Below are positions 9,762-64,000 of a DNA stretch of 64,000 nucleotides, one piece after another. The stretch is from positions 13,144,001 to 13,208,000 of the forward strand of contig NC_135264.1 in assembly GCF_964204865.1 (NCBI RefSeq), written 5' to 3'. Within the stretch, counting starts at the first letter, position 1. The number at the start of each line of letters is the position of its first letter. The notes below the pieces were generated by a model. The model was not told the origin of the DNA. It saw only the letters and a program-made list of their open reading frames with translations, and searched no databases. The position numbers and the translations under genes were made by a program. The DNA comes from Styela clava. Taxonomy: Eukaryota.

Positions 9762-11360
9762 ATGAGTCGGATTGGCAATCTCACTTCGAGAATATTTGTT
9801 GGGGGTATGGATCCAAGCGTCAGTGAAGTAGACTTGGAGAAAGCCTTCAAACTCTTTGGAGAAATTACCAATGTAATGGTGATGAGAGACAGAGAAAATG
9901 GTCGTTCACGAGGGTTTGCATTCATTTCATTTAAAGATGCTCAAGCATCGGATCAGGCGATAAGCAGAATGCATGGTGTAGAAATTAGAGGCCGATGTGT
10001 TTCTGTACGACATGCTGAGAAGGAAAAATTTGTTCGTGATGATAGACCAAAGCGAGGTGGTTTCAGGGGAGGGAGAATTTCAACTGGGAGTAGATCTGAA
10101 AATTTTCGTGATCAGCCTGCATATAGGGGGAATGGTCATCAGAGTGGCGCAGGTTATGGTATGTCACGTCCACCATCAGATATTGTCTATGTTGTAAGGG
10201 ATGACAAAGAATCGGGATATTCACGTAGGTCGAGAAGTCCATTAGGAGGTCCTAGATACAGGCCGGAAAGCCCACCAAGGCGTATGGGTGAAAGACGTGG
10301 TTATTCTCCACCACTTTATCAATCAAGACCTTTGTCTCCACCCCAGAGACCTGGATCAAGCACACTTGGTGAATCTGAATATTTTAATAAACCCATAAGA
10401 CGGGTAACACCATCACCACCAGATTACGGCTTTTCTAGGTTTAAAGAGAACCAAGAATTGTCTCCAGCCAGAGAACTGGGCGCATACATCCGGGCAAGAG
10501 ATCACTCACCTTCATTTGCTCGCCAAAGCCACAAATTGAGCCCCGAACCTGTGCATAGAAGGCGATCACCAAGTCCCGCAGTAAATAGACCATACAGCGA
10601 TAGAAACGTATCACAAAGAAGTCGTCAGCAATCTGATATCCAGAAATATAATGATGAAAGTTCTCTACGGTTTGATTCTAGAAATAATCAGACAAATCCT
10701 CCTGGATACAGAGATTCAGGTCAACAGGTGTCATCATCAGCCGAGCGATATAGAGATTCTAGCCGACATACTCTGTCTGCTGCAAGATATAACGATGATA
10801 ATAAGCATCAGCAGCCATCGTCCGGACGATTCAGAGATCCGGATACTCGAGATGAATATAGATTTCAACCTAATAGGCGAGATAATACGGAGAGGTACTC
10901 CCCATCTCGCAGCAGAGATGCAGGTTCTTCATCTTTAGGGGATAGACAAATTGTATCAGCTGGTATGTCAAGAGGTGGTAGAGAAACAGGGCGCTCAACC
11001 ATGGGGTATAGGGAAAGTACATCGCCACGTCAACACCCTAGAGATATGGAGACTGGATCAAGAGAATCTGAATCTTACAGACCACGAGGCTCAACTTCAG
11101 TCAGGGGTGGTTATAGAGGAGGTGGTTCAACATCAAGGGGCAATAATTATCGAGATCGTTCTCCTAGAAGAGATTCACGTAACATTAGACAGGAAGACAG
11201 AGATCGACAACAGCCACCTCGATATCGAAGTAATTATGAGGAAAAAAGAACATCCCCAATGTCTCGCAGGCCAACATCTAGCGATCGAGGTCCTCCAGGC
11301 AGGTCACCAAGAGGACGAAGCCCTCCAAGGAGAGGGTCACCTCCGCCAAGACGATATTAG
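9762..11360 (+). CDS. Single-RRM RNA-binding protein with a long RS/RG/SP-rich tail (RBMX/CIRBP-like); CDS in one exon
   Basis: RNP2 IFVGGM and RNP1 RGFAFISF sit in the context DRENGRSRGFAF. The tail has RGG boxes and RSRS/RSP repeats. An acceptor lies at 9746-9747 just before the ATG at 9762. Likely 5'UTR exons end at the donors at 7501 and 9545. Confidence 0.88.
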   Translation: MSRIGNLTSRIFVGGMDPSVSEVDLEKAFKLFGEITNVMVMRDRENGRSRGFAFISFKDAQASDQAISRMHGVEIRGRCVSVRHAEKEKFVRDDRPKRGGFRGGRISTGSRSENFRDQPAYRGNGHQSGAGYGMSRPPSDIVYVVRDDKESGYSRRSRSPLGGPRYRPESPPRRMGERRGYSPPLYQSRPLSPPQRPGSSTLGESEYFNKPIRRVTPSPPDYGFSRFKENQELSPARELGAYIRARDHSPSFARQSHKLSPEPVHRRRSPSPAVNRPYSDRNVSQRSRQQSDIQKYNDESSLRFDSRNNQTNPPGYRDSGQQVSSSAERYRDSSRHTLSAARYNDDNKHQQPSSGRFRDPDTRDEYRFQPNRRDNTERYSPSRSRDAGSSSLGDRQIVSAGMSRGGRETGRSTMGYRESTSPRQHPRDMETGSRESESYRPRGSTSVRGGYRGGGSTSRGNNYRDRSPRRDSRNIRQEDRDRQQPPRYRSNYEEKRTSPMSRRPTSSDRGPPGRSPRGRSPPRRGSPPPRRY

Positions 11361-42089: not shown

Positions 42090-42460
42090 ATCTATTCGAT
42101 AAACCCACATTCAAGGCGCGTGTCCAGTTGCCGCGAATCGGACGATAATAAAATCTTTATCGGTAAATCGTAATCAAAAGTTTTTGTGCCATGATTAAAT
42201 GCTATATTAGACGAGGCCACAACTTTGTGATTTATGTTTGATAATCAGTAATTTATTGGTATGATCAAACAATGTTATCATAGATAAGTTTTATCAAATT
42301 AGAACCGAGTCGCTTATCTACAAAGTAACTATTTCTATATATTTATTATCAGTAACTATACTATAAATTACTTATCTTAATTGTCTCTATGGCATTGATA
42401 ATTTGAAACAACCGTTTAAAAATAGTGCGCTTATCTGCACGCTAATGCCATATAAATAGA
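42090..42460 (+). promoter_or_regulatory. GATA-site-rich proximal enhancer and TATA box of Not-like copy 1 (paralogous at 45010-45280 and 46960-47280)
   Basis: About 12 GATAA/TTATC motifs in ~350 bp, largely retained in the duplicates; TATAAATA at 42451 and 45269. Confidence 0.6.
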
Positions 42461-42514
42461 CCGTTACCCTTCAAGATTTCATTTACGTTACTAAACGATA
42501 TCAAAATATACAAA

Positions 42515-43501
42515 ATGATTTCTTACCGACATCCTTACCAAGCTGTCTCGAATGCTCAATGGACGCCATTTCTTCGTTTCAATTACGCAGGAAGTTCAGA
42601 TTTAGAAGAAATTACAACAAAGAAGAGGAAATTTTCATCAAATGAAGGTTATACGAAGGTCGCAATTGTAAATCAGAAGACACAAGATAGAAAAATTCTC
42701 GACTCTTCGAAGTCTTCCGAACAGGTGGAAGAAAAATTGAATAACCGACAAAAGAAAACGAAAACTCCTTTTACCATAGACGCATTACTGGGACATTCGA
42801 CCGAAAGCCCAAGCAAAAAAAGAAAACTTGAACTTCCGCAGTCAATAAAAATCAAAGATGATTCATTCGACTCTGGTTTTGCATCGTCTGGAGAAAACGA
42901 CGAATCAATTCTTGCATGTCCTGTTGCAAATGACAGTGGAATTTGTGTCAATGATTCACGAGAAAAATTTGGTCAAATTCATTCTATGACAACAGACTTA
43001 CCTCAACCTAAAGTAAAAAATAATCGACAATTACCGCACCCAGAAAGCTATAGTGGTTTATATATTCCTGTCAACGATGTATATTATTTACATTCCGGAT
43101 TACACCACTTTGTGCAGCAAAATTGGTTGTATCACAACCAACATGCAATATCGTATGCACCGATTGAGACTGCAGCTTTCGTTGGTCAAGGCAATACCTA
43201 CTCAAATATGTGTTCACATTCACCGAAACACGGATCTCAAAAAACAGAAAAGACTAAACGAACGAGAACTACATTTACTCAAAAACAATTAGAATATTTG
43301 GAAAGCGAGTTTAACAATCAACAATACATGGTTGGAATTGAAAGACGAGCACTTGCCAAAAAGCTCAGACTCACAGATGCGCAAGTAAAAGTTTGGTTTC
43401 AAAATAGAAGAATCAGATATAGGAATGAAAAGAAGCGCGAACCCGAAGAAGAAACCAACAAACTGGACATTCTCAAACGAGAAGCGATCGGAAAATGCTA
43501 A
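42515..43501 (+). CDS. Not: Not/NOTO-like homeobox protein, copy 1 (intronless)
   Basis: Homeodomain KRTRTTFTQKQLEYLESEFNNQQYMVGIERRALAKKLRLTDAQVKVWFQNRRIRYR; QQYMVG.ER and QVKVWFQNRRI are Not-class features. Also has an eh1 motif (PFTIDALL), a TATA box and AATAAA. Confidence 0.88.
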   Translation: MISYRHPYQAVSNAQWTPFLRFNYAGSSDLEEITTKKRKFSSNEGYTKVAIVNQKTQDRKILDSSKSSEQVEEKLNNRQKKTKTPFTIDALLGHSTESPSKKRKLELPQSIKIKDDSFDSGFASSGENDESILACPVANDSGICVNDSREKFGQIHSMTTDLPQPKVKNNRQLPHPESYSGLYIPVNDVYYLHSGLHHFVQQNWLYHNQHAISYAPIETAAFVGQGNTYSNMCSHSPKHGSQKTEKTKRTRTTFTQKQLEYLESEFNNQQYMVGIERRALAKKLRLTDAQVKVWFQNRRIRYRNEKKREPEEETNKLDILKREAIGKC

Positions 43502-45333
43502 GATTTCTTATGTTTATAGATTGAGTTCCATAGTTTCCTATAGAGGTTGTCTTTATAATAATTGTTCATTAAAAGTTTCATGAAATAAAGTTTTCAATAA
43601 AATATATCAAAATATTTGTTCCATTTTGTTGTTAAGTATAGTGTATGTGTAAACAGCTTAATTCCGTTAGATACACGCTGAATGACTAATTTCAAAATTA
43701 TTAACAGAATGAAGAATATTTATTTCGATGATGCTCTCGTCTTGAGGTTAGGGCTGGGCATTTTCGAATACCTGATGATTTTCGAATCGAATTGAATACT
43801 TTTTCGGATTGAATCTCGATTACGTGGAAGATATGTAATTTTATGTGATTTTCTTATTGTAACGAGTTCTCCAGACACGTAAAATACTGAAAACAAAAAA
43901 ATCTATTACTCAGTTAGTCCGCCTCGACCTATGGCGGAAAAAAAGCAAAATGACAACGATTCAATATTCTCATTGGGACTGATTCGATTCGGAATGCCCA
44001 TTCATACCTGAGATACACAAACTTTTGATTGCTTCCAAAGGGATCGATTGTAGTTAAACAGCTCTTCTTAATTCCTGAGAACTCGGGCTCGACAAACTTT
44101 CTTTACTTTCGAGACCAACCCAAACATCGTTCTATCTCCTTCTTATCTACTTTTCAATCGTTTTATCTGATAGCTGATAAAAGTTAGTTTAAGTTCAGGC
44201 ACGCCAGATCATTTCCATTCACTAATTTGCGGATTTGTTTATTAAAAATACCTAGTTTTTAGCCATTAACTAGCAAATAAAATTTTCATTCCATTTTTTG
44301 AAACATATGGGTCTACGAGATGAAGATAGTGAAAAAATATAATACGGTGAAAACTCTTCAATTAGTCTGAAAGGAATTTTAAATTTGGACAAATTCATCC
44401 ATTCAATCCTATTTCATTTTTATTCTTTTAAAGTTTTCGAACGATAAGAATTTGCGACCAGAATTAATGACCTGACAAAACAATTAAACAAATACACATC
44501 AGTTTTTCAACATTTTAAATCTGGAACAACCCTTCGAAATTCCGAAAACGACTAAAAAATGAATAATGTTTCAAACTTGAATGACTGTACATTGTCAAAC
44601 GGTAATTAAATTTCATCCTATGGCTACATTATTCAGGGTTGATCAGACCCTTGCAATTTCATTCCGTTAGAGCAGAAAACTTGTTAGCCCAGAATCAATA
44701 TTGAAAATTGCGGCAACGCACACATTTTTATGATTTATTTATTTTATTTCTTAGAAATTGAATAGATAAAACAACAATATTGTTCCACAAATATGGGCAT
44801 GATGTGTCTGGTGAAATTTTGTACAAGTACCCGCGCCTACAAGAAGCAAAAGATATATATACTTACATTCGAGTAATATATATATATATATATAGCTTCA
44901 ATGCTATTAATGCATCGATGCTTAATTTTAACTCGAGTAAAAATATACGGCTCGTCATAAATATGGTTCTCAGCATATACATGGACGTCGTTTTTCTTGT
45001 TTTACATTGATGATTTGCTATATCGGACGAGGCTAAAACTTTTGTGATTTATGTTGGATATCAGTAATTTGTTGAGATGATTAAACGTAATTATGTTATC
45101 GTAGATAAGTTTTATTATATTAGAACCGATTCGCTTATCTATAAAGTAACTATTTTTATATATCATCCGTATAACCAAACGCGTGCGATTTATCTTAATT
45201 GACTCTATAACATTGATAAGATGAAATAACCATTTAAAAATATTGCGTTTATCAGCAAGCTAATTCCATATAAATACACCGGCTATTCTGAAACATTTCA
45301 TTAACAATATTAAACGATATCAAGATATACAAA

Positions 45334-46326
45334 ATGATTTCTTACCGCCATCCTCACCAAGCTGTCTCCAATGCTCAATGGACGCCATTTCTTCGTTTTA
45401 ATTATGCAGGAAGCTCGGATTTAGAAGAAATTACAATAAAGAAGAGGAAATTTTCATCAAATGAAGGTTCGGGATTTACGAAAGTTGCAGTTGTAAATAA
45501 GGAGACACAAGTTACAAAACTTCTCGACTTTTCGAAGTTTCCCGAACAGGTGGAAGAAAAAATAAATAACCGACAAAGGAAAACGAAAAGTACTCTTTTC
45601 GCCATAGACGAAATACTGCGACATTCGACCGAAAGCCCAAGTAAAAAGAGAAGACTTGAACTTCCGCAGTCATCTAAAACCAAAGATGATTCATTCGACT
45701 CTGGTTTTGCATCGTCTGGAGAAAACGACGAATCGATTATTTCATGTCCTGGTGCAAATGACAGTGGAATTTGTGTCAATGATTCACGAGAAAAATTTGG
45801 TCAAATTCATTCTATGATAACAGACTTCCCTCAACCTAAAGTAAGAAATATTCGACAATTACCGCATCCAGAAAGCTATAGTGGTTTATATATTCCTGTC
45901 AATGATGCATATTATTTACATTCCGGATTACACCACTTTGTGCAGCAAAATTGGATGTATCACAACCAACATGCGATATCGTATGCTCCTATTGAGACTG
46001 CATCTTTCGTTGGTCAAGGCAATACTCACTCAAATATGTGTTCACATTCACCGAAACACCGATCTCAAAAAACAGAAAAGACTAAACGAACAAGAACTAC
46101 ATTTACTCAAAAACAATTGGAACGTTTGGAAATTGAATTCAGCAATCATCAATACATGGTTGGAATTGAAAGACGAACACTTGCTAAAAAACTCAGACTG
46201 ACAGATGCGCAAGTGAAAGTTTGGTTTCAAAACAGAAGAATTAGGTATAGGAATGAGAAGAAGCGCGAACCCGAAGAAGAAACCAACAAACTGGACATTC
46301 TCAAACGCGAAGCAATCGGAAAATGA
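45334..46326 (+). CDS. Not: Not/NOTO-like homeobox protein, copy 2 (tandem duplicate, intronless)
   Basis: Highly similar to copy 1 over its full length; intact ORF; homeodomain QLERLEIEFSNHQYMVGIERRTL...WFQNRRI. Confidence 0.88.
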   Translation: MISYRHPHQAVSNAQWTPFLRFNYAGSSDLEEITIKKRKFSSNEGSGFTKVAVVNKETQVTKLLDFSKFPEQVEEKINNRQRKTKSTLFAIDEILRHSTESPSKKRRLELPQSSKTKDDSFDSGFASSGENDESIISCPGANDSGICVNDSREKFGQIHSMITDFPQPKVRNIRQLPHPESYSGLYIPVNDAYYLHSGLHHFVQQNWMYHNQHAISYAPIETASFVGQGNTHSNMCSHSPKHRSQKTEKTKRTRTTFTQKQLERLEIEFSNHQYMVGIERRTLAKKLRLTDAQVKVWFQNRRIRYRNEKKREPEEETNKLDILKREAIGK

Positions 46327-46774: not shown

Positions 46775-48067
46775 TTCTTGAAATTTACTTCTGTGTTTCT
46801 CCAGATTTTGTTTTTACTTTAAAAATATACGGCTTGTCATAAATGCGGTTGTGGTCAAACACAGCAGAGATTTTACTCCGTTGTTTTCCTTATTTTATTG
46901 AGGAAAATATTCGAGGTATTTTGATGGATATTGATCGTTCCAACGCGTATGATTAGAAATTTATATCTATTCGATAAACAATTGTAAATTTGGTTGAAAT
47001 TGATATTACAGTGGGGAAAATAAACTCCTAAAAAATAGATTAAGAACTTCAATTTAGGGCGCGTGTCCAGTTGCCACACGTCAGACGATAATCAAATCTT
47101 ATCGGTAAATTCTAATCAAATGTTTTTGTGCCTTGATGAGATGCTATATCAGATGAGGCTTAAACTTTTGTGATTGATGTCGGATAATCAGTAATTTTAT
47201 TGATATAATCAAACGTAATTATGATATCGTAGATAAGTTTTATCACAATAGAACCGATTCGCTTATCTACAAAGATTTATATATTATTATTATTTCTTAG
47301 TTTCTTTTTTATGTTATGAATTTAACCTTCTGGCGACCGGGAACATTCCAAGTTTCTGAGTTTATGCCAAGGTCATCAATTGATAGAAAGTACTTTACGT
47401 AAGATGTGAGCTGTTCCAAGAAGAACGGTGCAAAAAAATTGGATGTATCACAACCAACATGCGATAAAGTATGCACCGCTTAAGACCACAGCTTTCGTTG
47501 GTCAGAGTGAGGGCTGGGCATTTCGAATCGAATATTCGAATCGAATCGAATAGTAAATTATTCGAATCGGTTCAAAGCTAAATTTCGAATCACCGCCATC
47601 TTGTTTTTTTGTTTCCGCCAATGATCGAGGTGAATTCCTTAATTTTTTTTTCATTGAAGTCATATTTTTTCAACGCAATTCTAACATATGACTATTTTCT
47701 GTAGTGAGTTATTGTTTAAGTGTTTTTGTTATTGTGTGTGAACGCTCACAATCTATCTGAGTGATGTATTCTATGTCTTCAGTAATTTATTTGTTAGAAG
47801 ACCAATTACTATAAAAAAAAGTCGCTTACAATTATATATTTCCAAGTATTCAAGATTCGATTTGATTCGAAAAAAATTATTCGATTCGATTCTGAAATCA
47901 CAAGATATTCGAAAATGCCCAGCCCTAGTCAGAGTAATACTCACTCAAGTATATATGTGTGAACAAGAACTACATTTACTCAAAAACAATTACAATATTT
48001 GGGAAGCGAGTTCCACAATCAACAATACATGGTTGGAATTGAGAGACGAACACTTGCTATAAAACTC
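46775..48067 (+). pseudogene. Third Not-like copy: duplicated upstream region plus deleted, MITE-interrupted CDS fragments (47437-47508, 47936-48067)
   Basis: 46775-47275 matches 41894-42325. 47437ff encodes NWMYHNQHAIKYAPLKTTAFVGQ and 47962ff encodes TRTTFTQKQLQYLGSEFHNQQYMVGIERRTLAIKL. Lacks the ATG region and helix 3. Confidence 0.9.
47509..47927. mobile_element. hAT-like MITE inserted in the Not pseudogene
   Basis: TIR (g)agggctgggcattt / aaatgcccagcccta; TSD gtcagagt; ttcgaatcga subterminal repeats. Older relatives lie at ~31165-31565, 40501-40870 and 43750-44005. Confidence 0.9.
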
Positions 48068-48293
48068 GGTACTCCCGAAGTGTGTAAACCAAGATGGCAG
48101 ACACCGGGAAGTACCAGCTTAGGGTTATGCCATAATTTCAGCTACAAATACTAACGGAGTCAATTGGCTAGTCCTCCAACTCGTAATAGAACTGAAATAA
48201 GGAAAATTGGAATAAAAATATGGCCTAACCCTACCCTGGTACACATACTACGTTTCGGTGTCCGCCATCTTGGTTCATATATTTCGGGATTAC
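48068..48293. mobile_element. Merlin-like MITE truncating the Not pseudogene homeobox
   Basis: ggtactcccgaagtgtgtaaaccaagatggcagacaccgg ... cggtgtccgccatcttggttcatatatttcggga; same family as 59177-59411. Confidence 0.8.
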
Positions 48294-48599: not shown

Positions 48600-51500
48600 T
48601 GTGAAATAACATGTTTCATCATTATTCTCTTTGTCTCGTCTTTTTCTGGCGTCACCTGGTCATGTGATTCCTAATAACCAATAAAAGGCAACTTCTCTTC
48701 CTCCTCCGTCGTCTTTGTTTCTTTAATATGTTTAAACTTTTTTCTTGCCACGTCAAAACTTTGTATGCGCAGTTGCAGTCTTTCAAATAGGACGCCGTTG
48801 GGTAAGCACGTTTTTTTATTTTTTTCAGTTTGTACATTTAACTTCGATAATCTTGTGTTTTTGCGTTTATATTTACATACAGATTTATTTATACTTAACT
48901 CAAACTTGAAAATATTGCCTCGAATGTCTGCACAAAAAAGGATCCATCGCCAGTTCTGATTAGAAACGAAAACGGAAGATGATGCAATGATTACTAGCTA
49001 AAGTTGAACTTAATCATTCAGTTAGGCATAATACTAAAGTCTAGGTTGGTGTGTAATTATTGAATCAAAGACGAAGACAACGACAAATGCAGACGATTAA
49101 GAACAATAATATGTACAAGTTAGTACATAGGATTATAAGACGCGAATTAAAATTTACGATTTAGGTTTAATCCGGGTATATTAATCATCCTGTTTTTTTG
49201 CCTTCAGTATTGTATATATTATATTCCTAAAATCATATCTGATGTATTGTTGTTTCGCTCGTATTTTTGCAAACTGACTGGATGCAACCAATCTTCAAAT
49301 GTTGACATCGATAACTATTGGAGCGGAACAAGAAATCCGATTCGATTAAAATCAGACGTCACACTTCTCTTTGTTTCTTTATTATTTTCAGCCTTTTTTG
49401 ACACGTAAAAATTTTGTCTTGGACCGACCAGTCTTTTTAAATTGGCGCCGTAGGTGAGTGCTTTTTGAATTGTTTTGTGTGAATCGGCGTGTCGCTAATA
49501 TTCTCAAATTACAGCACTTTAGTTCACTTTTAATTCAAGTTTTTTTGCAGTTATGTTGATAAAGTTAACTATAAAGTTAAACTTGGCCTAAAATTATTAA
49601 TTAATTTAAATATCTACGAACTGGCAGTTGGATTACAAGACTTGTGAATGTGGAAATTGAAACGATGGTTGGTGAGAAGAACCTGCGAGGGCGCGGACAG
49701 AAACAAAGTGGCGCGATCATGGATTATTAAGGTAACTGTTCATTGTTAACGGGTAACACTAGAGGAAAAACCTAGATCTAAGCTTAAGTGTTAAAGTTCC
49801 CTCGTCCTTAAGTTTTTCTGTCGTTATATATCTCTAAATAGCAGGATTTTAAATACATATGAATGGAGAGTTAAAGGCTGCCCAGGTGCTATACAACCGC
49901 TATTTGTGTAAATTTATATTAAGTCTTAAATTGAACCAACCAACCAATCTGTTTTTAATATCTTGTTTTGTTTATGTAGTCAAGACGTGAACAAGCTTCG
50001 CATGTTGACATTGGAGACTGGTGTGAGGCAGGAACTGCGAATAGTTAAACCAAGCATTATATTAACATTTGTGACTGCATCTATGTTGAATCACAACTGC
50101 TAAGCAGGTATTAATTCTGAATAAAATATTTTGTTCATTTTTCTTGGCACGTTAGATGTTTACGTTTGGTAACGTTATTTTTATGTATGTGTGTTGCGTT
50201 CCTCTTTGTTCAAAAAAAAATTTTTCTTGCAGCTTATTTCTAATTCTTTAAGTTTTACTATTGCAGTTAGGCTAAACTTAGGCTTTAATTTATTGGTTCA
50301 AATATCTACGTAACGAAAATGAGACTTCAAATACCGGAGTTGTTGGAGTAAACGAAAACGGATGGTGTCTCCATTACCAGCCAAAGTTAAACATATTCAG
50401 GTATGCTATACCATTACCTTAATATAACGGTTGGTATCTAATTCTTGAATCGAGGACACACAGGGGACGCCACCACGGATTATTAAGGTGAACTGTTAAT
50501 TTGCTTCGAGCCATAAGTGCATGAGCGTAGGCTAATATAGTATAATATACATTTTGGCTATAGTATAATATACAAACTTGGCCAAGTGTTATGATTTCGT
50601 CAGTGTCGTATTGTCATCTCATATACATATTCCTTAAAACAGAACTCTAAATGCATACATACACGGAGTTTTCATTGTACTGGCTCACGCGTGGAACAGC
50701 GTACCCTTGCTGCAGGTGAATCCAAATTTACATTTTGAATAGATTTCCAATATGCCAAATACGACTGGATGAAAGACGTCGATGAACATCGAATTTGGCA
50801 CAAATTTTCGGGCTATTTCACAGGTTATATTTTTGTTTGAAAACTTTCTTCAATTCTATAACGATGAACTAATTTTTAATCAGGCTTCTCAAAACTGCTT
50901 TCTCGGTGCGCCGTTTTCTCGGTGCGTCACGGCGCAAGTATTTTCAAAGATGCCATCAACAGAAGTCTGTTATATTCCGCGTTCCATTCCGTTAATTATT
51001 TTAGGGTACCAGTGTGGTACACGATACTTCTGCATGATAGATGGTTGGCATCGAACAATGTGTTCCGATTCTGTCTGGCACCGTATTGTCTCTTCGTAAA
51101 TTTCTTCATACTAGAATCCTGATTAACTACATTTTTGTAGTCCTACATTACACTCCTCGCTGTGATAAACACTGCCAATACTAATCACTCTGTAATTTCT
51201 TTCAGCTCGTTGTACTTTAGTTTTAGTCTATATAATGTAACTTAGCTAAGTATTATGCTTTCGATCGTATTCATGCAAACTAGGACTCGGTATATAAACA
51301 AGCTGAGAATGTTGGCATCGTAAACTACTGGAGAAAATGCGGTTAGAGGAGCGTTGACTCGAGATCAGTAAGTAAGTAGATTCAGATTGGTATTTTTGAC
51401 TGTAGTTAAGTTAAAATTTTATTCTCCCATCACCTCCGCATTTCCTTTTCCTTATCAACCATTAAAATTATTTTTGTTGATAAACTTGAAAAGTCTTTAA

Positions 51501-51616
51501 TTGTAATTACACGCCTGTAGAAGGTGGGATGAAAGCACGACGTTGATATTGTGGCCATGGATGGCCGTGTGACGATTGAAGTTTATATGGACGGCAAGGT
51601 AAATTTTTATACGCTA
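48600..51616 (+). repeat. Degenerate tandem array (~0.7-kb period) of mini-exon-like units without a conserved ORF; candidate spliced non-coding locus or decayed gene
   Basis: Recurring motifs: ggattattaag|gt (49721, 50477); atgttg(a/g)cat..(a)act (49299, 50002, 51309); cag|tta..g.taaactt.g...aaatatctacg (49550, 50266); ttt(g/c)(a/c)cacgt.aaa...cagtcttt..aa...gcgccgt.g|gt (48745, 49398). Confidence 0.65.
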
Positions 51617-54600
51617 TATAGCCCTGGAGTATAGCATAAAAAGATTTAGGACTATTACTTCAAAGTTGCTATTATTTATAATAAAGATCGAGTTAAGTTC
51701 TAATTTATGCAGAGCGATTGTTCAAAACTTACGGAGAGGTAAAACCTATTTTAATGTTATAGGTTGCATCGACATGACTACTTGAAATATCGTTTCCAAT
51801 ATCAGATACTGGTGTTTACTGGTGTTTTATGCACCAGCCCATATCTTATTGTTTCATTGCCTCTTGTGGGCTCCAGTAACTAAGTTTAATTGGCAGATTT
51901 GACACGAAAGATAGTAACTAGCAGAGGTGTAACAGTCTTTACGAGAGTTGTTGGTTATAGCAGAAATATTTGTAAATTTAGAAGCGACAATTTCTTTCAT
52001 CACACCAAGGTATTGTTTCTATTTCTTCATAGAATCTGTAATGAATCGAATATTAGTTGGATAACAAGGTTGCCAATTACGTATAGATGTATATATACTT
52101 TAGGGCAGTGGTTCTGAAACGGTTGGGGGGAGGGGGGAAGTATTTGTAACATTTGACCTCGTCCGCCAAAATACGGATACACAAAATAATAAAAACGTCT
52201 GGTGGGGATAAAATATCGTACTTTGACATACATTCGGGTAATGATGAACCCTGAAACTAAATAAAACTCAAGATACAAAGTAGGGCCCTCATGAATTTCA
52301 AGTACCAAACTGGAGGTAACTATTTTTGTTTGCCTACTTTACATCAAGTTGTGTAAAGGGACGAAGCCTATAGGCAGGGGGCATATTCACTTGGCTAACA
52401 ATGACAGTCCCCAAATTTGTAATAAAATCAAAACAAGAAAATCGCAATGAAATTATGGTTCTAACCTGGTACGCATACTCGGGGAGTACCTAAAGCGGAC
52501 CCATAGATCACATGGCTGTAAAGAAAACAGATTCCCTGAAGCAAATTTTTTTGACATTTTTAGTGGCTAAAAACTTGTTGCTGTCGCTAGCAGGCTACTA
52601 CTAATATTCAAAAACATTTGTGGAATCTATGTAATTCATTATTCACTTCACTTGGTGTAATGTCATCAAGATAATAACTTGCTTGCGTGGTTCCCTGATC
52701 ACATCCCAAGTGATCTTGTAATCGTGAAAAACATACTAACGTTACTTCGTTTGCCTTCGCGTCCCAATATTTAGCTTAGCAGGACCACGGACTCATTAAA
52801 TTGAATAAAGTGTAAAACGCCGTAAAAGGAATAGGACCCACCAAATGGAAATATCTGTTGCAAGTGATTATTCAGTTGACAAGATTTCCTCGATCAACAT
52901 ATTGCAGTTTCAAGATACCTGAATATAAAAATAAAAACGAACTTGTATTTCATAGGCATTTACCTCTAACAATAGAATGGTTGTGAATTATATTATATAA
53001 CTGATCAAAAGTGAAGACAAAAGACGTACCTTTATATTCAATGCAGTGGTCTCAAAACCACGTTATTACGTTTTCATTCATTTCTCTTTTCTCTTTCCGG
53101 CCCTGTAATTAGATTAGAGATGTAAACCTAAATAAATGATTTTTGATTGTTCAGCGTTCAAAAGCATCCAGTTTACCGAATCGCCATTTATATACATGCA
53201 AACGCACGACAGGCTACAAATCTCGAGGAAGGTTTGGTTGTTTCAGCGTTTGGGAAACAGTATGTGAGAGAAGACCGAATATATATCATACGATGACAGT
53301 AGAAACTTAGCCGTAAATTAATGTCGAATAGAATATTAGCGTATAAAAATTTACCTTGCCGTCCATATAAACTTCAATCGTCACACGGCCATCCATGGCC
53401 ACAATATCAACGTCGTGCTTTCATCCCACCTTCTACAGGCGTGTAATTACAATTAAAGACTTTTCAAGTTTATCAACAAAAATAATTTTAATGGTTGATA
53501 AGGAAAAGGAAATGCGGAGGTGATGGGAGAATAAAATTTTAACTTAACTACAGTCAAAAATACCAATCTGAATCTACTTACTTACTGATCTCGAGTCAAC
53601 GCTCCTCTAACCGCATTTTCTCCAGTAGTTTACGATGCCAACATTCTCAGCTTGTTTATATACCGAGTCATAGTTTGCATGAATACGATCGAAAGCATAA
53701 TACTTAGCTAAGTTACATTATATAGACTAAAACTAAAGTACAACGAGCTGAAAGAAATTACAGAGTGATTAGTATTGGCAGTGTTTATCACAGCGAGGAG
53801 TGTAATGTAGGACTACAAAAATGTAGTTAATCAGGATTCTAGTATGAAGAAATTTACGAAGAGACAATACGGTGCCAGACAGAATCGGAACACATTGTTC
53901 GATGCCAACCATCTATCATGCAGAAGTATCGTGTACCACACTGGTACCCTAAAATAATTAACGGAATGGAACGCGGAATATAACAGACTTCTGTTGATGG
54001 CATCTTTGAAAATACTTGCGCCGTGACGCACCGAGAAAACGGCGCACCGAGAAAGCAGTTTTGAGAAGCCTGATTAAAAATTAGTTCATCGTTATAGAAT
54101 TGAAGAAAGTTTTCAAACAAAAATATAACCTGTGAAATAGCCCGAAAATTTGTGCCAAATTCGATGTTCATCGACGTCTTTCATCCAGTCGTATTTGGCA
54201 TATTGGAAATCTATTCAAAATGTAAATTTGGATTCACCTGCAGCAAGGGTACGCTGTTCCACGCGTGAGCCAGTACAATGAAAACTCCGTGTATGTATGC
54301 ATTTAGAGTTCTGTTTTAAGGAATATGTATATGAGATGACAATACGACACTGACGAAATCATAACACTTGGCCAAGTTTGTATATTATACTATAGCCAAA
54401 ATGTATATTATACTATATTAGCCTACGCTCATGCACTTATGGCTCGAAGCAAATTAACAGTTCACCTTAATAATCCGTGGTGGCGTCCCCTGTGTGTCCT
54501 CGATTCAAGAATTAGATACCAACCGTTATATTAAGGTAATGGTATAGCATACCTGAATATGTTTAACTTTGGCTGGTAATGGAGACACCATCCGTTTTCG

Positions 54601-54739
54601 TTTACTCCAACAACTCCGGTATTTGAAGTCTCATTTTCGTTACGTAGATATTTGAACCAATAAATTAAAGCCTAAGTTTAGCCTAACTGCAATAGTAAAA
54701 CTTAAAGAATTAGAAATAAGCTGCAAGAAAAATTTTTTT
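50214..54739. repeat. Inverted duplication A: 50214-51616 = reverse complement of 53337-54739
   Basis: Identical ORFs on opposite strands; coordinate sum is constant at 104953; one substitution seen (51283/53670). Confidence 0.97.
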
Positions 54740-56296
54740 ATAAAGAAAAAGCAATAACACAGACTAACAAAAAATAAACTGAAATACTTTTGAATGAAAA
54801 AACGCTTTTTTGTCTACGGTATACGAGTGGCCATACTTTGGACAAATGTTAGCAGTTCACAAATTATTGCATTCAATTTAAATGAGGCAGTTTGGGCAAA
54901 GTATTTCATAAAATTTATACAATTTGGATTGGGAGCAAATCACTTTATATATCAGTTGAACAAAGCAGGGCTGTGGAATCTGGGAAATTTACCTCATACT
55001 GTGCCGGTCCCTTTAAAAAAGACTCTTTGCTCACAAATGACTACTTCTTTAAGGACTCTTATCCGGCCCCCAACTGTCGGTTAAAAAATGTCGACTCTTA
55101 CTACACTTTATTCAATTTAATGAGTCCGTGGTCCTGCTAAGCTAAATATTGGGACGCGAAGGCAAACGAAGTAACGTTAGTATGTTTTTCACGATTACAA
55201 GATCACTTGGGATGTGATCAGGGAACCACGCAAGCAAGTTATTATCTTGATGACATTACACCAAGTGAAGTGAATAATGAATTACATAGATTCCACAAAT
55301 GTTTTTGAATATTAGTAGTAGCCTGCTAGCGACAGCAACAAGTTTTTAGCCACTAAAAATGTCAAAAAAATTTGCTTCAGGGAATCTGTTTTCTTTACAG
55401 CCATGTGATCTATGGGTCCGCTTTAGGTACTCCCCGAGTATGCGTACCAGGTTAGAACCATAATTTCATTGCGATTTTCTTGTTTTGATTTTATTACAAA
55501 TTTGGGGACTGTCATTGTTAGCCAAGTGAATATGCCCACTGCCTATAGGCTTCGTCCCTTTACACAACTTGATGTAAAGTAGGCAAACAAAAATAGTTAC
55601 CTCCAGTTTGGTACTTGAAATTCATGAGGGCCCTACTTTGTATCTTGAGTTTTATTTAGTTTCAGGGTTCATCATTACCCGAATGTATGTCAAAGTACGA
55701 TATTTTATCCCCACCAGACGTTTTTATTATTTTGTGTATCCGTATTTTGGCGGACGAGGTCAAATGTTACAAATACTTCCCCCCTCCCCCCAACCGTTTC
55801 AGAACCACTGCCCTAAAGTATATATACATCTATACGTAATTGGCAACCTTGTTATCCAACTAATATTCGATTCATTACAGATTCTATGAAGAAATAGAAA
55901 CAATACCTTGGTGTGATGAAAGAAATTGTCGCTTCTAAATTTACAAATATTTCTGCTATAACCAACAACTCTCGTAAAGACTGTTACACCTCTGCTAGTT
56001 ACTATCTTTCGTGTCAAATCTGCCAATTAAACTTAGTTACTGGAGCCCACAAGAGGCAATGAAACAATAAGATATGGGCTGGTGCATAAAACACCAGTAA
56101 ACACCAGTATCTGATATTGGAAACGATATTTCAAGTAGTCATGTCGATGCAACCTATAACATTAAAATAGGTTTTACCTCTCCGTAAGTTTTGAACAATC
56201 GCTCTGCATAAATTAGAACTTAACTCGATCTTTATTATAAATAATAGCAACTTTGAAGTAATAGTCCTAAATCTTTTTATGCTATACTCCAGGGCT
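51620..56296. repeat. Inverted duplication B: 51620-52814 = reverse complement of 55102-56296
   Basis: Identical ORFs on opposite strands; coordinate sum 107916; one substitution seen near 52377/55539. Confidence 0.97.
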
Positions 56297-57388
56297 CCTC
56301 AACTATTTTTACCGAAGATCCGCATATAAAATTCAAAAATATTTGGGTCCAGTCTTTCCAGAAATTATATTTCGTTATCCTTAAACACGCACTTTCTCGG
56401 TCAACTAATGATTATTAGCTAATCAAGATTGTTTGTTATAGCCTTATAGTTCTTTTCATATATATTTAAATCTATAAAATTGATGTTAGAAAAGGAAACT
56501 TCAAAAGTGGGGCTAATGATCCAAAATAAAGAATTAGGCGCGGTCCTAATCGAATACCCGGAAGGTCCGGATGCGGATCGCGGCCCGTTAGTTGAGTAGC
56601 TCTGCTATACTCTATGCCCAACATATGTAAACTACGGCCCGTGGGCCAAATCCGGCCTATTGAGGTGATTCAATCTGGACCGCCTGATGCTGCCCCAACC
56701 AAACTAAAACCGAAATTCGATTTTTTAGTTGAAAATAATTCATAGGAATTTGTTGGGAATGCGAATAAAAGACTTATTTTCCACTTTTGCTTTTGTAACA
56801 CTGTGAATATTGTTCCTAAAATGTAACTTTTTCACGTCACACTTACATGGCCAGCAGGTCTAGGTGGGCACAATTGACTATAACCTGTCCTAGTTTAAAA
56901 AAAAAAAAACTTTCTCACCTCTGCGCTATGCAGTCGTGATTGATAGTGGAATTGGTGCCGGAGTCTATCACAGAATCTCGAGACTTGAATGCTCAATTAA
57001 ATGATAGTAAGAGTTGATGGCTGTAGTAAGAGTCGACATTTTTTAACCGACAGTTGGGGGCCGGATAAGAGTCCTTAAAGAAGTAGTCATTTGTGAGCAA
57101 AGAATCTTTTTTAAAGGGACCGGCACAGTATGAGGTAAATTTCCCAGATTCCACAGCCCTGCTTTGTTCAACTGATATATAACGTGATTTGCTCCCAATC
57201 CAAATTGTATAAATTTTATGAAATACTTTGCCCAAACTGCCTCATTTAAATTGAATGCAATAATTTGTGAACTGCTAACATTTGTCCAAAGTATGGCCAC
57301 TCGTATACCGTAGACAAAAAAGCGTTTTTTCATTCAAAAGTATTTCAGTTTATTTTTTGTTAGTCTGTGTTATTGCTTTTTCTTTATA
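54739..57388. repeat. Inverted duplication C: 54739-55105 = reverse complement of 57022-57388
   Basis: Near-identical ORFs (two differences: F/V, T/I); coordinate sum 112127. Confidence 0.97.
56290..56604. mobile_element. hAT MITE
   Basis: TIR cagggctcctcaacta / tagttgagtagctctg; TSD ctatactc. Confidence 0.88.
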
Positions 57389-57994
57389 TATTTTATATTT
57401 TTATATCGTTAATTTTTGTGTAATTGCATTTATTATGATACTGAATTTTTCAATTTTAACTCTTGCTTAAGCAATAAAATATTTTTAAAATCATATCTTG
57501 AGTCTTGTTGTAGTTAGGTTAATTAGGAACAGACTGAATAAAGTACGGGGGCTGAAGGGCAGGGTGAGCTGAAGCGGGCACGGGCGGGCCGGGCTGCCCG
57601 GGCGCGCGGCCCGAAAAATTCTGGAAAATTATCTTCGGCCAACGATAAATTATTATGTTTGGCCTTGTATGGCCCGGTAATAATGATCGAAGTTTTGGTA
57701 AAATTTATCTTTGGCCACACTTGGCCATAGATAAATAAAATTCTGCTAAATTATTATCTTCGGTCACGCTTGATCGACGATAATTTTTCAGATTTTCAAT
57801 GTTTTGAGGGTTAGACCTTGGATTTTTGTCGATTTCTCCTTTTTCATCGGATATTTGATATTTTTAACGGTTAGATCTTCGAACTTAGTCCGATTTCTGC
57901 TGTTTTCATCGGATATTTGGTGTCTTACATCCTTTTCTGACGTCGTCTTTATTCTTTTATTCGGTTATTTACGGATTTCGATTTAGAATTATTT

Positions 57995-58073
57995 TAAAAG
58001 TATGTATTGGAATCGAACTTAGGACTTGAGCTTAACTTGATATGCGATTTGCGCTCAACCACTACACCACAGC
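57995..58073 (-). ncRNA. tRNA-like Pol III cassette (A box, B box, T-run) in the left palindrome arm
   Basis: Minus strand: gctgTGGTGTAGTGGttgagcgc...GTTCGATTCCaatacatacTTTT; no complete cloverleaf. Confidence 0.4.
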
Positions 58074-58205
58074 AATGTCGATTCCTAAATGTTTCAACTC
58101 TAATACTTATCTATCAAAAGGTGTGGGCACGAATACTCCGGAATGAGGTTGATTACCCCCTTTGATAGATAAGTATTAGGGTTAAAACGTTTAGAAATCA
58201 ACATT

Positions 58206-58277
58206 GCTGTGGTCTAGTGGTTAAGCGCATTTCAAGCTATACTTATGTCTTAAGTTCGAATCCGTTGAAGTCTTTTT
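58206..58277 (+). ncRNA. tRNA-like Pol III cassette (A box, B box, T-run) in the right palindrome arm
   Basis: gctgTGGTCTAGTGGttaagcgc...GTTCGAATCCgttgaagtcTTTTT; no complete cloverleaf. Confidence 0.4.
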
Positions 58278-59176
58278 AGATAAACAGAAATATCGAAATC
58301 CGTAAATAAAAGTATGACACCAATTATTCGATGAAAACAGCAGAAAAGGACAAAATTCTAATGTCTAATCCTTGAAAATAACAAATATCCGATGAAAATG
58401 GCGAAATCGATAAAAATCCAAGGTCTAACCCTTAAAAAATTGAAAATCTGAGTAATTATCATCGATCAAGCGTGGCCAAAGATATTTATTTCGCAAAATT
58501 TTATTTATCTATGGCCAAGTGTGGCCAAAGATAAATTTCCCCAAAATTTGCGATATTATCTCTGGGCCATACATGTCCGAACATAATAATTCATCTTCGG
58601 CCGAGGATGATATTTCAGAATTTTCTGGGCGGCGCGCCCGCGGGCCCCGGCAGCCCGCACCGCCGCGCTCGCTCCAGCCCGCACCCTGGCCTGCCTGCCC
58701 TTGGGTCTGATTAGTTTAGTTTCTGCCTGTCAAACCTATACTCGCTGTAAGATTCAGGAATCATTTAAAATATTTTTATTACTCCGAGAACAAGTTACAG
58801 AAAAGAAATAAAAAATAAAAACACAAATCAAGTTCAAGATCACCAGAAAAACATCTCAATTTTGGCAAAAATTGATACAAATAATAAGTTGGAAAGGTCA
58901 TACATAACATATAGAGCATAATGAATTTATGATTTACCTATTCACAAAACATTGTCGTTAAAATAAGGGTTGACAATACAGTATTGGAAAAACACAGCAA
59001 AAATTATATTTAAAAAAGAATTGGTATTATTTATTTACATAATTGCAATAATGATAAAATTTTATTTTTACGAGATACAACGGGACATAACCGGGTCCGA
59101 TTAAAGTCTCCGACTAATAAATCGACTCCGCACTCAACTTTGATAACTTACAAGCGTTTAATCAATTTCAATTAAA

Positions 59177-59411
59177 GGTGCTCCCGAAGTATGCGAACCA
59201 AGATGGCGGACATCGGAACGTAACATGGGTAATAGGTTAGGGTTAGGCGATAATTTTTTTCCAATTTTCCTTATTTTAGTTTTATTATCAGTTCGACGAC
59301 TAGCCAAGAGCCTCCCGTAGTATTTATACCTAAAATTATGGCCTAACCCTAACCTAGTACACATATTACATTCCGATGTCCGCCATCTTGGTTCGCATAC
59401 TTGGGAGCCCC
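59177..59411. mobile_element. Complete Merlin-like MITE with long TIRs containing telomere-like and YY1-like motifs
   Basis: ggtgctcccgaagtatgcgaaccaagatggcggacatcggaa...ggttagggttagg / cctaaccctaacc...ttccgatgtccgccatcttggttcgcatacttgggagcccc; TSD caattaaa. Confidence 0.88.
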
Positions 59412-61499
59412 CAATTAAATATATATTTAAGATTAGTCAACTTGGGTTCTTTTTAGTTTTAAAATTTTAACCCCGGTTCCGAATTCAAAATCTATAAGAA
59501 TGTGTGGGTACCACAGCGCGGATTTAACTCCATTAGCATCTGAAGAGCATTGCTTTACATTTATTAAAATTCACACGGAGCTATTCACGAGGGATCATCA
59601 ATATATATGGCTATCTTTGGGATCTGTTAGAAAACGTTATTTATATAAATCATATGCAAATGCTTCACGTTGATCAGTATTTACTGACGGTTATGGAACT
59701 TATTACTAATTTATACAGATAAAGTACCTCTCGTCATTTCTGAGACAGCTTCTACTCTGAGATGAATCTTGGTTTTGAGTGATAAATTTAAATATTGGCC
59801 CAGCGAATACTGTCTGCTACTATGGAAGATTCGATACTGTCTGCTAGGGTTATGAATAAGTATTTTAAACATTAATTCAAAATAATTCAATTTTCAACAG
59901 GGTAGCAGCGTTTTTGCCACCTTTTCCGGTAAATGTCAATGCAGTTCTTAGTTCTTGAAACTAAAGATTCTCCGCGTATCAGTATAAGAATATAGCTATG
60001 TTGCATGATACTGGAATGGTTCACGCAAAATCACTCAGTTCAGTTTGCAGTTTCGAAGTTCGAAGAAATTTTTCTTCCATGATCAAGGTTTTTCTTTGTT
60101 GATATCTAAAATGAATTGGGGATTAGTTCGACACGTGATGAAAACTTGCACATTGTGTATATGAGAGCCGTCAAAACTGGGGATCCCTTCTCCTGTGCTA
60201 TGGGCCTCGAGAGGGATCAAACGGGGGTAGCGGTGAAACATGTCTGGGTATCGATTACGTTGAAGAAAAATATAAATTGAATGATGTGGAAGGTTCGTGC
60301 GTGCGACGTGTTACATTTTATGAACAATATTTACAGTGTTACAAAATGAAAGCCTCGTGCCCAAACTAAATATAAACGCGATCTTAACAAATTCCTTGAG
60401 ATATACAGCGAATCTTATTGCGGCATTTTTCCATGATGATAAATTACAACTCCGAAAGCAAGCAAGTTATGGAAGGAATGAGAAAAGTACAAATTGTAAT
60501 AAAAAATGATCCAACATTTGGTTTTGCATTGATTGTGGCAGCACCAGGCGGGCCAGATTAAAGTACTCAAAGTGACGTAATTGGCCCGCGGGCGCCGTAG
60601 TTTGACCATGTCATGTTTACGTTCCACTACGACCACGAGATGCGGTTTTTCGCAAGCTTTAATTGTTATGATTAAACTTACTTTCAGTAATGCAGCTCCA
60701 TGTGTCACAAACGCAGCTCAGTTATGTTCAAAGTCAGTGATATTTCTTCTTTTAGTTTATTATTTCTGAAACGAAATAAATTAGTTTTAGTCGACATATT
60801 TGAAAGCGGTGTTACAAAATACTAAAAATAAAACAAAAATACCATAAATTTTTATAGGAGTACCGAGAGCGTTATTAAAAAGCTATTTTAGACATATATA
60901 GTAGCAAACTATCTAATTATGGTGTACCAACGGAACACATTACGCTCAACCAACTACACCACAGTCACTGAAGCGGTCAGTTGTCCATTATTAAAATACG
61001 GCCATCCTGCAATCATTTTTCTCTCGAATTCGTAACAAGTCAATCAATATACCATTATAAATTTTACTCATTGCCATTTCATCGGAAGCTTATGGATATT
61101 TTTAAAAGAGACACCTTGAAATGGAAACTCAAATTTGATGGATTTGCGAGATCGCAAAAAATCCGATTAGTAGAGATTTCTGAGCAGTAGGTCTTTCATT
61201 TTGCCGCAACTCCTGAAACATTTTGAATGCTCGTATCCAAAATGTATTCATCCCAGAGTGGAGTAATCGCGGCAATTACTTGTGTGATACGGCAATACTC
61301 TAACCCCTCTTAAATTCATGGTGGCGTCCATAGGATCACTTATTCAAATGTTGAAATCCGGAGATACATTTCTGATTTCGATGTAAATTAGTGAATTAGA
61401 TTTATTGTAGTAAAATGAAGCATACCCAGTGCAAATATGTTCGTGATAAGTGATCACGTGTTTCTTCAATCTCGCTTGTGGCATTCTTGATAGGCCTAA

Positions 61500-64000
61500 A
61501 ATATAACAGAAACGTAATGTAACAATTACTTTAGTGATGTAAAAAGGTGAAAAATCCGCAAGAAATTCAGTGCTATGAATATAAAGCAATATTCTAAGCA
61601 ATCAAGATAAAAACGTGATACTAGCTTTTAAATACAATCGTAAAAATTATTGAATAACATACAATCTAGTCTGTTGTAACACACTGGCAACTAAATCATA
61701 CGTTACATACGCATACATTAATGCATTCGCGAAAGTAAAACCTTTGCATTACAATGAAGTTCTGATACGTTTTTTATCTTTCAATAAAATGAAAAAACAA
61801 ACCTGTCCGTTTATTGAAGCGACCACATTACCATCGAGTTGTGGCAATATCGAACATCAAACGTTAAGTTTCGACCACCTCTTTATACCTGTAATTAAAT
61901 TGTAACATCACGGGTAATTAATACTATTCACCAATGTTCAAATGGTGCCGAAACACCCGATATTAAATCTTAGATTAGACAAATTTATAAGCTATTCCAG
62001 TAATAGTAACAAGATCGCTTACACTTAAGAGTTTAAGAATTTTTCCGGATATAAAACGATATAAATATAATTACCTTTAATTTGCTGTTAAATGTTTCAA
62101 CGTGGAATGTGATGAGTTTTTTCACATGTTGGAGAGACTCCGCCTGAAATATAAGGTGGCAAAATCGTAAAAGAGTACAGCGGTAAATTTTTATTTTTGG
62201 TCGATAAACTCTGGTAACAAAACTGCTCAATAATAATGAATACTGAATATATTGAATTTTGTTCGAATTAAACATAATATTCATCATCAAGCGTCATAAA
62301 AAAAAAAACGGTAAAAATCTTTTTGGCACGCTGTTATCTTGAACTTTATTACCGTATAAAATTTAAGTTACCTCATTAATCCTCCTTGGTATCCTGAATG
62401 AAAATCATACATTTCAATAGTATTGAATAATCTTTGGTTTGTGTTCGTCGCATCTTGTTTTCGTTTCACATCTTCGGACTCCATTTTCAGTTTGTAGTAG
62501 TAATAAAAATTCAAAGAGTAATCTAGGTATAATTTTAGTCTATAGTATAATAATATAGCTGTAATATAAAACGTGATATTTTGTTAAATGGAGCCAAGTG
62601 TGAGAATATAACAAGACACAGATTCACAATTATTAGAAAAAAAATTTAATAAACCGTTGCTACCTGACGGTCGCGGTAATCTAAAAAAGACCGACGAGCA
62701 AGAAGTGCCCGCATAAGAATCGAGATTTAATCGCTTTTGGATCGAAAAGAAATATACAAAGACATGATATCATAATTCTTGGTTGTATTACAAATTTCTG
62801 TCAACCAAATGTCGTAAACTAATTTCATGATCGTAAAAATTCAAATAATCACCTTATTACTTCATTATCGCCTCCGTTCGCATATTCTTTCGTAGTCTGA
62901 TTCAGAAAATGAAAAGTAAAAATCTAAGAATTTGCTATCAGAATTCGCTCAAATGTTTCAGTAAAGGCCTGCTTAGTTCAATTCAACTATATTAGCATAT
63001 CTATAAAAAGATAAAAATTAGCTGCAAAATACAACGTTTCAAGTATACAGAAGAGTAAGTGAAACAGGGTAGAGTCGTAGACAATTAACAATAAGTAGAC
63101 GAAATAAGACGGCAAGAAAAAGTAAAGAAACACACAATTAAGATTTTGCAAAGAGCGTGACACCAATTAATGATTGCCGTTGAAATGAAAAAAAAATATT
63201 ACAATAAAATATGTTACCTTTGAAATAGCCAAACAAATTCTTTCTTCAAAGTTTATATTCAGCACATATAAAGTCATCGATTCCACAGTCTCAACTAAGT
63301 TCCCATTTTCTGTTGCTATCCAGCAGTTTCCGATATCAACATTAAGTTTGTTCACTCCAGTAAGTGCAAGGTACGAAAGCTGAGGCAGGGTGATTCGAAT
63401 ATGCAGAAACGTAAAAAAAAACGATAAATTTACAATTGAATCCCTATTCTATACTAAATTTACTTTCAACTACATTGGTTATATTAACTGTAAAAACTGA
63501 AGATATAAATGAAACGTAGTGTAACAATTTACTGGTGTAAAAAGGGGAAAAATCCGTAAGAATTATACGGTTACCTTATTAATCCTTGATCGACACCTTG
63601 GTTTGTGTTTATCACATCTGCTATTTTCGTTCCAATTTAAAAAAAAATCAGAACTCATCACGGCATTTCCAATTTGTAGTAATTTAAATTAGCAGTTATT
63701 TAGATCTAATTTTAATTTAGTGTAGCTGTAATAGATGTAAAGAACTTAAAATGTTAGGAAAATCAACGTGATGGGATATGAAAGGATGAGCGACACTCAG
63801 ATGCAGTCAACTCATTTAAAAAGCAAAATCAGAATAAATAATGAATTAACCGTTCTTACCTGACGATGGTGGCTTGTATCTAGTGGATTTTTTTTTGGCA
63901 CAGATCAAAAAAAGATGAGCCTGTAAAATACGTCAACATTTAACAAGTTTGGAATTTAAAATTATACTCAATACATGATATCACGATTCTTGGTTAGTAT
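61500..64000 (-). repeat. Second degenerate mini-exon array (~1.2-kb period), opposite orientation, running off the window end
   Basis: Minus-strand exon ends ggattaatgag|gt (62372), gaagtaataag|gt (62852) and ggattaataag|gt (63574); gtgaacaaacttaatgttgatatcggaaact (63355); tacctgacg..acatgatatca..attcttggtt repeated at 62661-62784 and 63857-63995. Confidence 0.6.

Follow-up and report, generated by a model that had tools for sequence, protein, structure and literature searches.

An exon array in the Styela clava genome is apparently one end of an ordered, two-armed non-coding element

Host genes of the 5′TOP type for snoRNAs, such as GAS5 and UHG, begin in a pyrimidine-rich sequence and contain many short, unconserved non-coding exons. 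tRNA genes and TFIIIC sites are known as insulators, SINEs can be tRNA-derived, and the A and B boxes are spaced by 33 nt in class I and by 43 nt in class II. Primate core duplicons such as LCR16a/NPIP are transcribed multi-exon cores that seed interspersed segmental duplications with variable flanks; NPIP is protein-coding under positive selection, and neither tail-to-tail pairing nor a Pol III palindrome is described in the part of the source available here (PMC7419210). In maize MuDR/Mutator, two units subject to alternative splicing are transcribed towards each other from promoters at either end and are separated by a terminator region; the element also has terminal inverted repeats of ~215 bp and coding genes (PMC3440606). 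Mammalian pachytene piRNA genes give rise to spliced, polyadenylated non-coding Pol II RNAs from ~100 loci, the sites of which outlast their sequence (PMC7782496; PMC13061629), and are marked by first exons of at least 10 kb (PMC7782496). Convergent promoters are found at Drosophila Su(Ste) (PMC8412255), and piRNA-like silencing has been documented in an ascidian (PMC5897368).

The window analysed here is a stretch of 64,000 nt of S. clava DNA (RefSeq assembly GCF_964204865.1, contig NC_135264.1, positions 13,144,001 to 13,208,000 of the forward strand). It contains an exon array at 48600-51616 that is apparently one end of an ordered and seemingly undescribed non-coding element. The full element consists of a promoter core, an exon array, a palindrome of ~1.1 kb, and a second exon array and core in reverse orientation, and we regard this two-arm layout as highly probable. 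The family is closest to a transcribed core duplicon: a transcribed core, interspersed duplications and variable flanks were all found, in one genome. The layout itself was matched to no described system. With MuDR the element shares the convergent spliced units, whereas terminal inverted repeats and coding genes were not found in it. Unlike pachytene piRNA genes and Su(Ste), it has a short first exon, and its paralogous arms appear to stop before they overlap; neither a first exon of at least 10 kb nor an unspliced RNA, either of which marks a mammalian pachytene piRNA gene, was observed. The boxes in the palindrome are spaced as in tRNA genes, by 33 nt (class I) or 43 nt (class II), but, unlike tRNA genes and SINEs, they form no cloverleaf, stand back to back as a pair in a palindrome and are of low copy number. 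Start and exons are similar to those of GAS5 and UHG, and no conserved intronic RNA was detected. A description of the family was not found in a literature search that left most subscription journals and supplements outside its reach. In the part of the main text of the S. clava genome paper available here, lncRNA and segmental duplication are not mentioned; its tables S6 and S12 and the RefSeq lncRNA models may list the loci as unknown repeats or uncharacterised RNAs (PMC7540406). The features of the element in the window are as follows.

48650-48815, plus strand: L core with E-box (48659-48667), CCAAT (48678-48682), TTTGTTTCTTTA motif, pyrimidine tract from 48737, exon A and first donor 48801/48802 (family alignment; X5 joint at 48801)
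48711-49348, plus strand: unit 1 with modules A, B and C (family profiles)
49367-50107, plus strand: unit 2 with A′ 49392-49453, B′ 49628(49551)-49731 and C′ 49980-50107 (joints, profiles)
50138-51367, plus strand: unit 3 with an A remnant, B″ 50267-50400, exon 50643-50823 (second acceptor 50743) and C″ 51206-51367 (joints, profiles)
51521-51598, plus strand: class F exon, of a class also present in the opposite arms of the family (joints, exon-class comparison)
51620-57388, no strand given: rest of arm 1, rearranged in the assembly by inverted duplications (self-alignment)
57473-57478, plus strand: predicted poly(A) signal AATAAA of arm 1, ~85 nt ahead of the palindrome (place and context matched by 12/12 W-type flanks)
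57556-58692, no strand given: central imperfect palindrome, arm identity 75%, outer ends GC-rich (self-alignment, family copies)
57993-58079, minus strand: tRNA-type Pol III unit, outward-facing, with A box, 40-nt gap, B box and T4 at +9 (box pattern)
58200-58279, plus strand: tRNA-type Pol III unit, outward-facing, with A box 58210-58220, 33-nt gap, B box 58254-58263 and T5 at 58273 (box pattern)
58775-58780, minus strand: predicted poly(A) signal AATAAA of arm 2 (flank scan)
58781-64000, minus strand: arm 2 with modules B 63733-63647, C 63350-63307 and F 61904-61793 (profiles; RNA-type contigs cover 61.4-64 kb)

The surroundings of the element were also inspected. Tandem intronless homeobox genes are located at 42446-43501, 45292-46326 and 47050-48067 (PF00046; a cluster member is named Hmx-like), the third copy being decayed and interrupted by a MITE at 47510-47927. 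Two more homeobox copies lie in L099, and the homeobox cluster borders the non-coding pair on both sides. MITEs of very high copy number occupy 48069-48293, 52317-52494 and 59177-59411 (X6 DNA depth up to ~260,000). Between 976 and 40000 ordinary genes were recognised by eye from their ORFs, among them a long low-complexity ORF, an RRM/SR protein (9762-11357) and what we take to be an LDLa-containing GPCR (minus strand) and cullin-4-like exons.

The sequence-only reading had described the array as a unit of ~650-750 bp repeated in tandem, and the unit is real. Three tandem A-B-C units with a spacing of 653-746 nt were recovered by searching with profiles from other family loci, the window being excluded from the profiles. 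Module A was matched at 48711-48809 and 49367-49459, module B at 48887-49127, 49577-49682 and 50256-50458, and module C at 49249-49348, 49983-50063 and 51255-51350 (module-profile E 2e-5 to 8e-23); Tandem Repeats Finder did not detect the array unit. Unit 3 is split by the segment 50643-50823.

The evidence for splicing comes from contigs only, in contig sets presumed to be RNA (a status inferred and not on record). Nine distinct GT..AG joints, as expected of a spliced lncRNA, were found in the array in four such RNA-type sets: 49731>49980 in 4/4 runs, 50823>51206 in 3/4, 50107>50267 in 2/4 with an allele variant in a third, 51367>51521 in 2/4, and 49453>49628, 49453>49980, 50400>50643, 50400>50743 and 50400>51206 in 1/4 each. 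In a fifth RNA-type run, X5, 48801 is spliced to ~48883-48885. The DNA-size run X6 is contiguous across 49731, 50267 and 50400. That the segments are spliced had been proposed before, and several of the borders then proposed (e.g. 49731, 49980, 50107 and 50267) agree with the joints. Others had to be corrected: acceptor 49628 is used and not 49551, and the segment drawn as 50267-50488 has the right acceptor but ends at donor 50400, the GT past 50487 not being seen in use. The supposedly separate segments 50643-50715 and 50743-50823 are a single exon with a second acceptor, because the 27-nt gap between them (50716-50742) is covered without a break in X1 and X2; exon 51206-51367, joined by 50823>51206, had been overlooked.

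The first exon is ~65 nt long, and the first donor lies at most ~230 nt from the most upstream contig end. Conservation of splice sites, which had been assumed throughout, holds for this donor, intact in 38/39 family copies where 29 other GTs average 0.70, but hardly for the next three sites, which are kept in 29/37, 32/37 and 26/36 copies and barely exceed the background of 0.66-0.70.

No sign of coding was obtained. The longest ATG ORF of the main spliced path (1425 nt) has 50 codons, compared to a mean of 51 in shuffles. Omega, for which the allele counting can saturate, was 0.97-1.02 in the 70-nt F exons (30 of the 77 F hits) and 0.70-1.17 over 18 frame tests of modules A, B and C, and fell below 0.5 in 1/733 windows along two full-length elements; the neighbouring homeobox paralogues served as control and gave 0.36-0.59 by a related pairwise count, a statistic not identical to the family omega. 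Only 32/127 family indels in modules A, B and C are divisible by three. Neither codon-structured substitution nor a prevalence of such indels, the marks of a protein-coding family, was therefore seen, and the earlier statement that no reading frame is conserved stands. No match at cut-off was obtained in Pfam for three local ORFs, tblastx among 10 long copies returned merely scattered short matches in all frames, and the family majority sequences contain no open stretch of more than 110 codons. A decayed repetitive protein gene family, also considered in the sequence-only reading, would be in keeping with frame 0 being open in most copies of the 70-nt F exon and with the 130-codon run that can be traced over 50643-51122. 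This run is present as reported, but requires introns of 27 and 60 nt for which there is no joint. Given omega near 1 throughout, the mostly non-3n indels, the short open stretches in majority sequences and the lack of a Pfam match at cut-off for the three local ORFs, the explanation is largely refuted already and highly improbable. Nor did the aligned units behave as a codon-structured known protein, as no codon signal appeared in the frame tests of A, B and C. The array at 48600-51616 is the front of a spliced gene without codon signal that arose from a triplicated three-exon module, in agreement with the many-exon non-coding RNA gene formed by serial duplication that had been suggested.

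Downstream of the array, arm 1 contains inverted duplication pairs of 99-99.9% identity (50175-51616/53337-54777, 51620-52814/55102-56296 and 54739-55105/57022-57388). RNA-type contigs pass from 51598/51616 into 53336 going downward and follow an alternative segment order, so the duplication-inversion of 50175-57388 reflects either a recent, rare rearrangement or a misassembly. Both arms of the window element have L cores, at 48650 (plus strand) and at the equivalent position 67455-67296 (minus strand; C19:13211455), the latter 3.5 kb outside the window.

The two-armed, multi-locus organisation with its central palindrome had gone unseen by the earlier reader, who had suggested a genome-wide search for further arrays. 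This search, in one S. clava genome of 377 Mb, uncovered a family of at least 66 loci. With 48600-50170 as query, 40 of 53 candidates were scored, each beginning at a common 5′ core, while two palindrome types used as queries gave 11 and 37 candidates and core R gave 36. In total at least 43 L cores, at least 36 R cores and at least 48 palindromes were collected, forming at least 66 clusters that are spread over 12 contigs, with 20 clusters on C19. Long copies are collinear over 10-13 kb and contain the ~1-kb palindrome and an opposite arm with its own core R. A core lies within 15 kb of 40/48 palindromes (38 directly, two more by profile) and on both sides in 17, with a chance expectation below 1%; in this pairing L cores were verified as inward-facing, R cores by distance. 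Of the eight palindromes without a nearby core, one has arm exons and seven showed no core within the 30-40 kb scanned. Control flanks gave no matches to core profiles, and a search of metagenome contigs with a core 26-mer gave no match. At the paralogue L003/L022 (C19:13.81 Mb), X3 and X4 contigs match exactly, and this locus appears to be transcribed as well. At L130-L133, L115 and L119 there is a third, diverged type of palindrome, in some cases with A/B boxes, in the vicinity of which no core was found; these copies may be the oldest in the family.

The motifs of the promoter cores carry presumed names (E-box, CCAAT and the like). The pyrimidine tract from 48737 is the likely start region predicted for arm 1; the start may be further upstream, since an X5 contig begins at 48574. 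Identity to the family majority is 0.89-0.93 in the core, 0.70 in upstream DNA and 0.78-0.86 in the remainder, core conservation being inflated by the choice of the first 40 loci through the core itself. One very distant core retains the E-box, CCAAT, the TTTGTTTCTTTAT motif and the T-tract. Cores of old right-arm pairs align in 34/36 (65-82%) and their interiors over 0-58%; in old left arms the cores are 67-89% identical and the interiors aligned over 3-71%. Core hairpins were no better than shuffles and compensatory changes occurred in 0/8 and 1/13 pairs, so the cores are read as DNA elements.

Pyrimidine-rich start and numerous short non-coding exons would also suit a 5′TOP-type family of host genes for intronic snoRNAs or miRNAs. 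Yet in 17.6 kb of the window and at six other loci no Rfam family came near threshold, that is, no conserved intronic small RNA was found within the families known to Rfam, and introns are kept no better than exons; we consider such a function very unlikely.

At the predicted 3′ ends, AATAAA on the incoming strand was found outside the palindrome edge in 27/30 flanks, compared to 34% of random windows, and in W-type flanks it lies at 68-109 nt in 12/12 with a common context. On the opposite strand it occurs in 21/30 flanks, with scattered positions in W type, and the L-type copies are not mutually independent. Each palindrome half has its A and B box close to the centre of the palindrome, facing outward. 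The A and B boxes were recovered in 24/27 and 39/51 profile rows of overlapping row sets, their conservation being partly inherent in the search pattern. A box, B box, spacing and T4 of a type 2 Pol III promoter are all present in the W type at sequence level: the exact 33-nt spacing in 13/14 units and T4 at +9 in 13/14, with a column conservation of 0.98 for T4 against 0.76 between the boxes. L-type units mostly have the 43-nt spacing, no near terminator and, in most B boxes, a non-canonical T.

Several simpler identities of the palindrome were rejected. As a tRNA gene it lacks a cloverleaf, and ARAGORN called none at default and two weakly, solely at the 85% score threshold; no conserved fold was found in the Pol III units (3 pairs). 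As a hairpin-RNA locus it lacks a G-U bias (354 G-U vs 364 A-C in 15 palindromes) and thus gives no indication that an RNA hairpin of its halves is under selection. It is not a free MITE or SINE, as it is of low copy number and tied to the family: 40 of 48 copies lie beside a core, by a search that skips very common words, and its DNA depth is 38-46 compared to more than 200,000 for the local MITEs. The idea of a junction of circle or tandem ends was dropped because single loci carry family sequence on both sides of the palindrome. Contigs of X3, X5 and X10 do not cover 57732-58779 and those of X6 do; X3 and X5 are from the same study and X10 hardly covers the locus, so we give this difference no weight. 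In an arm tree the W-type arms are mixed by locus, with support mostly open, and the L-type left arms form one clade; conversion between palindrome arms is suggested.

The palindrome is probably a stop and insulator shared by both transcripts. Alternatively, the product could be chromatin structure or short Pol III RNAs, the palindrome being a TFIIIC boundary or a pair of ~80-nt RNA genes and the Pol II arms mere transcribed and spliced runways. The maintenance of exact tRNA spacing and terminator while the intervening sequence varies, the palindromes without detected cores and the missing covariation in cores speak for this. It is nevertheless decidedly unlikely in our view, since a conserved fold is lacking in the Pol III units, ARAGORN finds none at default, and most L-type units combine a non-canonical T in the B box with the lack of a near terminator.

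The ends of the element are staggered on both sides, common flanks include old insertions, one locus is a 14-kb tandem, and no terminal inverted repeats or sharp ends were found at family copies, which together point to spread by segmental duplication. For lack of terminal inverted repeats and because of the staggered ends a Mutator-like or TIR DNA transposon was rejected. Transposon ORFs within the arms have no clear strand bias (~5 antisense, 4 sense, by eye). An insertion breaks up one family copy (L027:1400-5600); it carries a 554-codon ORF whose weak similarity to herpesvirus glycoprotein B stays below cut-off (PF00606, E 6.6e-6). Upstream of L034, in L091, lie convergent ORFs which we take to be transposase-like and YqaJ-like, resembling an ISL2EU element.

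A large non-autonomous mobile element or selfish duplicon, in which inward terminal promoters and palindrome would serve copying and the spliced RNAs would be by-products, has to be weighed here. Copies are 85-92% identical and dispersed over many contigs, tandem and inverted arrangements occur, and loci are gathered in contig middles (outside C19, 0/46 clusters in the outer 18% of contigs, a cut picked post hoc, and 3/46 in the outer quarters). Core depletion, moreover, is absent in young pairs. Private changes in the core were depleted in 8/14 comparisons, which include overlapping fetches of few loci, and in the 17 closest pairs the core (0.110) was not significantly better kept than the rest (0.122, p=0.10), with no depletion in the youngest; this fits birth-and-death evolution as well as a mobile element with selected master copies. 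Against mobility stand the missing terminal inverted repeats and sharp ends, the weak likeness of L and R cores (score 115.5 vs 81±9 for shuffles), the lack of a visible coding partner, and the old, mutually distant C19 loci, all of which retain cores, AATAAA and boxes. In old copies generally cores, first donor, AATAAA and boxes are kept and interiors are mostly unalignable, a preference that young copies do not have. Overall, a mobile origin appears unlikely.

As a whole we tentatively prefer, at somewhat less than an even chance, a spliced gene paired with its partner across a two-way stop and insulator palindrome, its RNAs acting as piRNA-type precursors. Pol II would begin in the core and end at the AATAAA that precedes the palindrome by ~85 nt, and TFIIIC or Pol III at the outward-facing boxes would prevent read-through into the partner gene. 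Selection would hold the start, the first donor, the 3′ end and the boxes and leave the RNA sequence free, and it is proposed that the interior for this reason collects exon duplications and transposon pieces. Segmental duplication would create new loci, most young copies of which would drift. That the arm RNAs are sequence-flexible precursors of piRNA-type small RNAs is a guess and rather doubtful; it is proposed because the scaffold seems to matter and the sequence seems not to. A poly(A) stop ahead of the palindrome counts against double-stranded RNA.

A bolder and unlikely possibility is a new kind of animal element with more than 60 loci, in which convergent non-coding Pol II genes share a palindromic 3′ module and form an insulated trap that would turn inserts into small-RNA precursors. 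The module would consist of poly(A) signal, GC-rich pause and back-to-back Pol III promoters, and only the scaffold would be selected.

Large paralogous lncRNA families allow selection to be read inside a single genome, and in the S. clava family what appears to be selected is the start, the first donor, the poly(A) signal and the Pol III boxes rather than the RNA sequence. Should the loci produce piRNAs, an ascidian would have source loci defined by promoters; should they be mobile, the element would lie outside all transposon kinds tested. The palindrome offers a compact candidate for a terminator and insulator of natural origin that acts in both directions.
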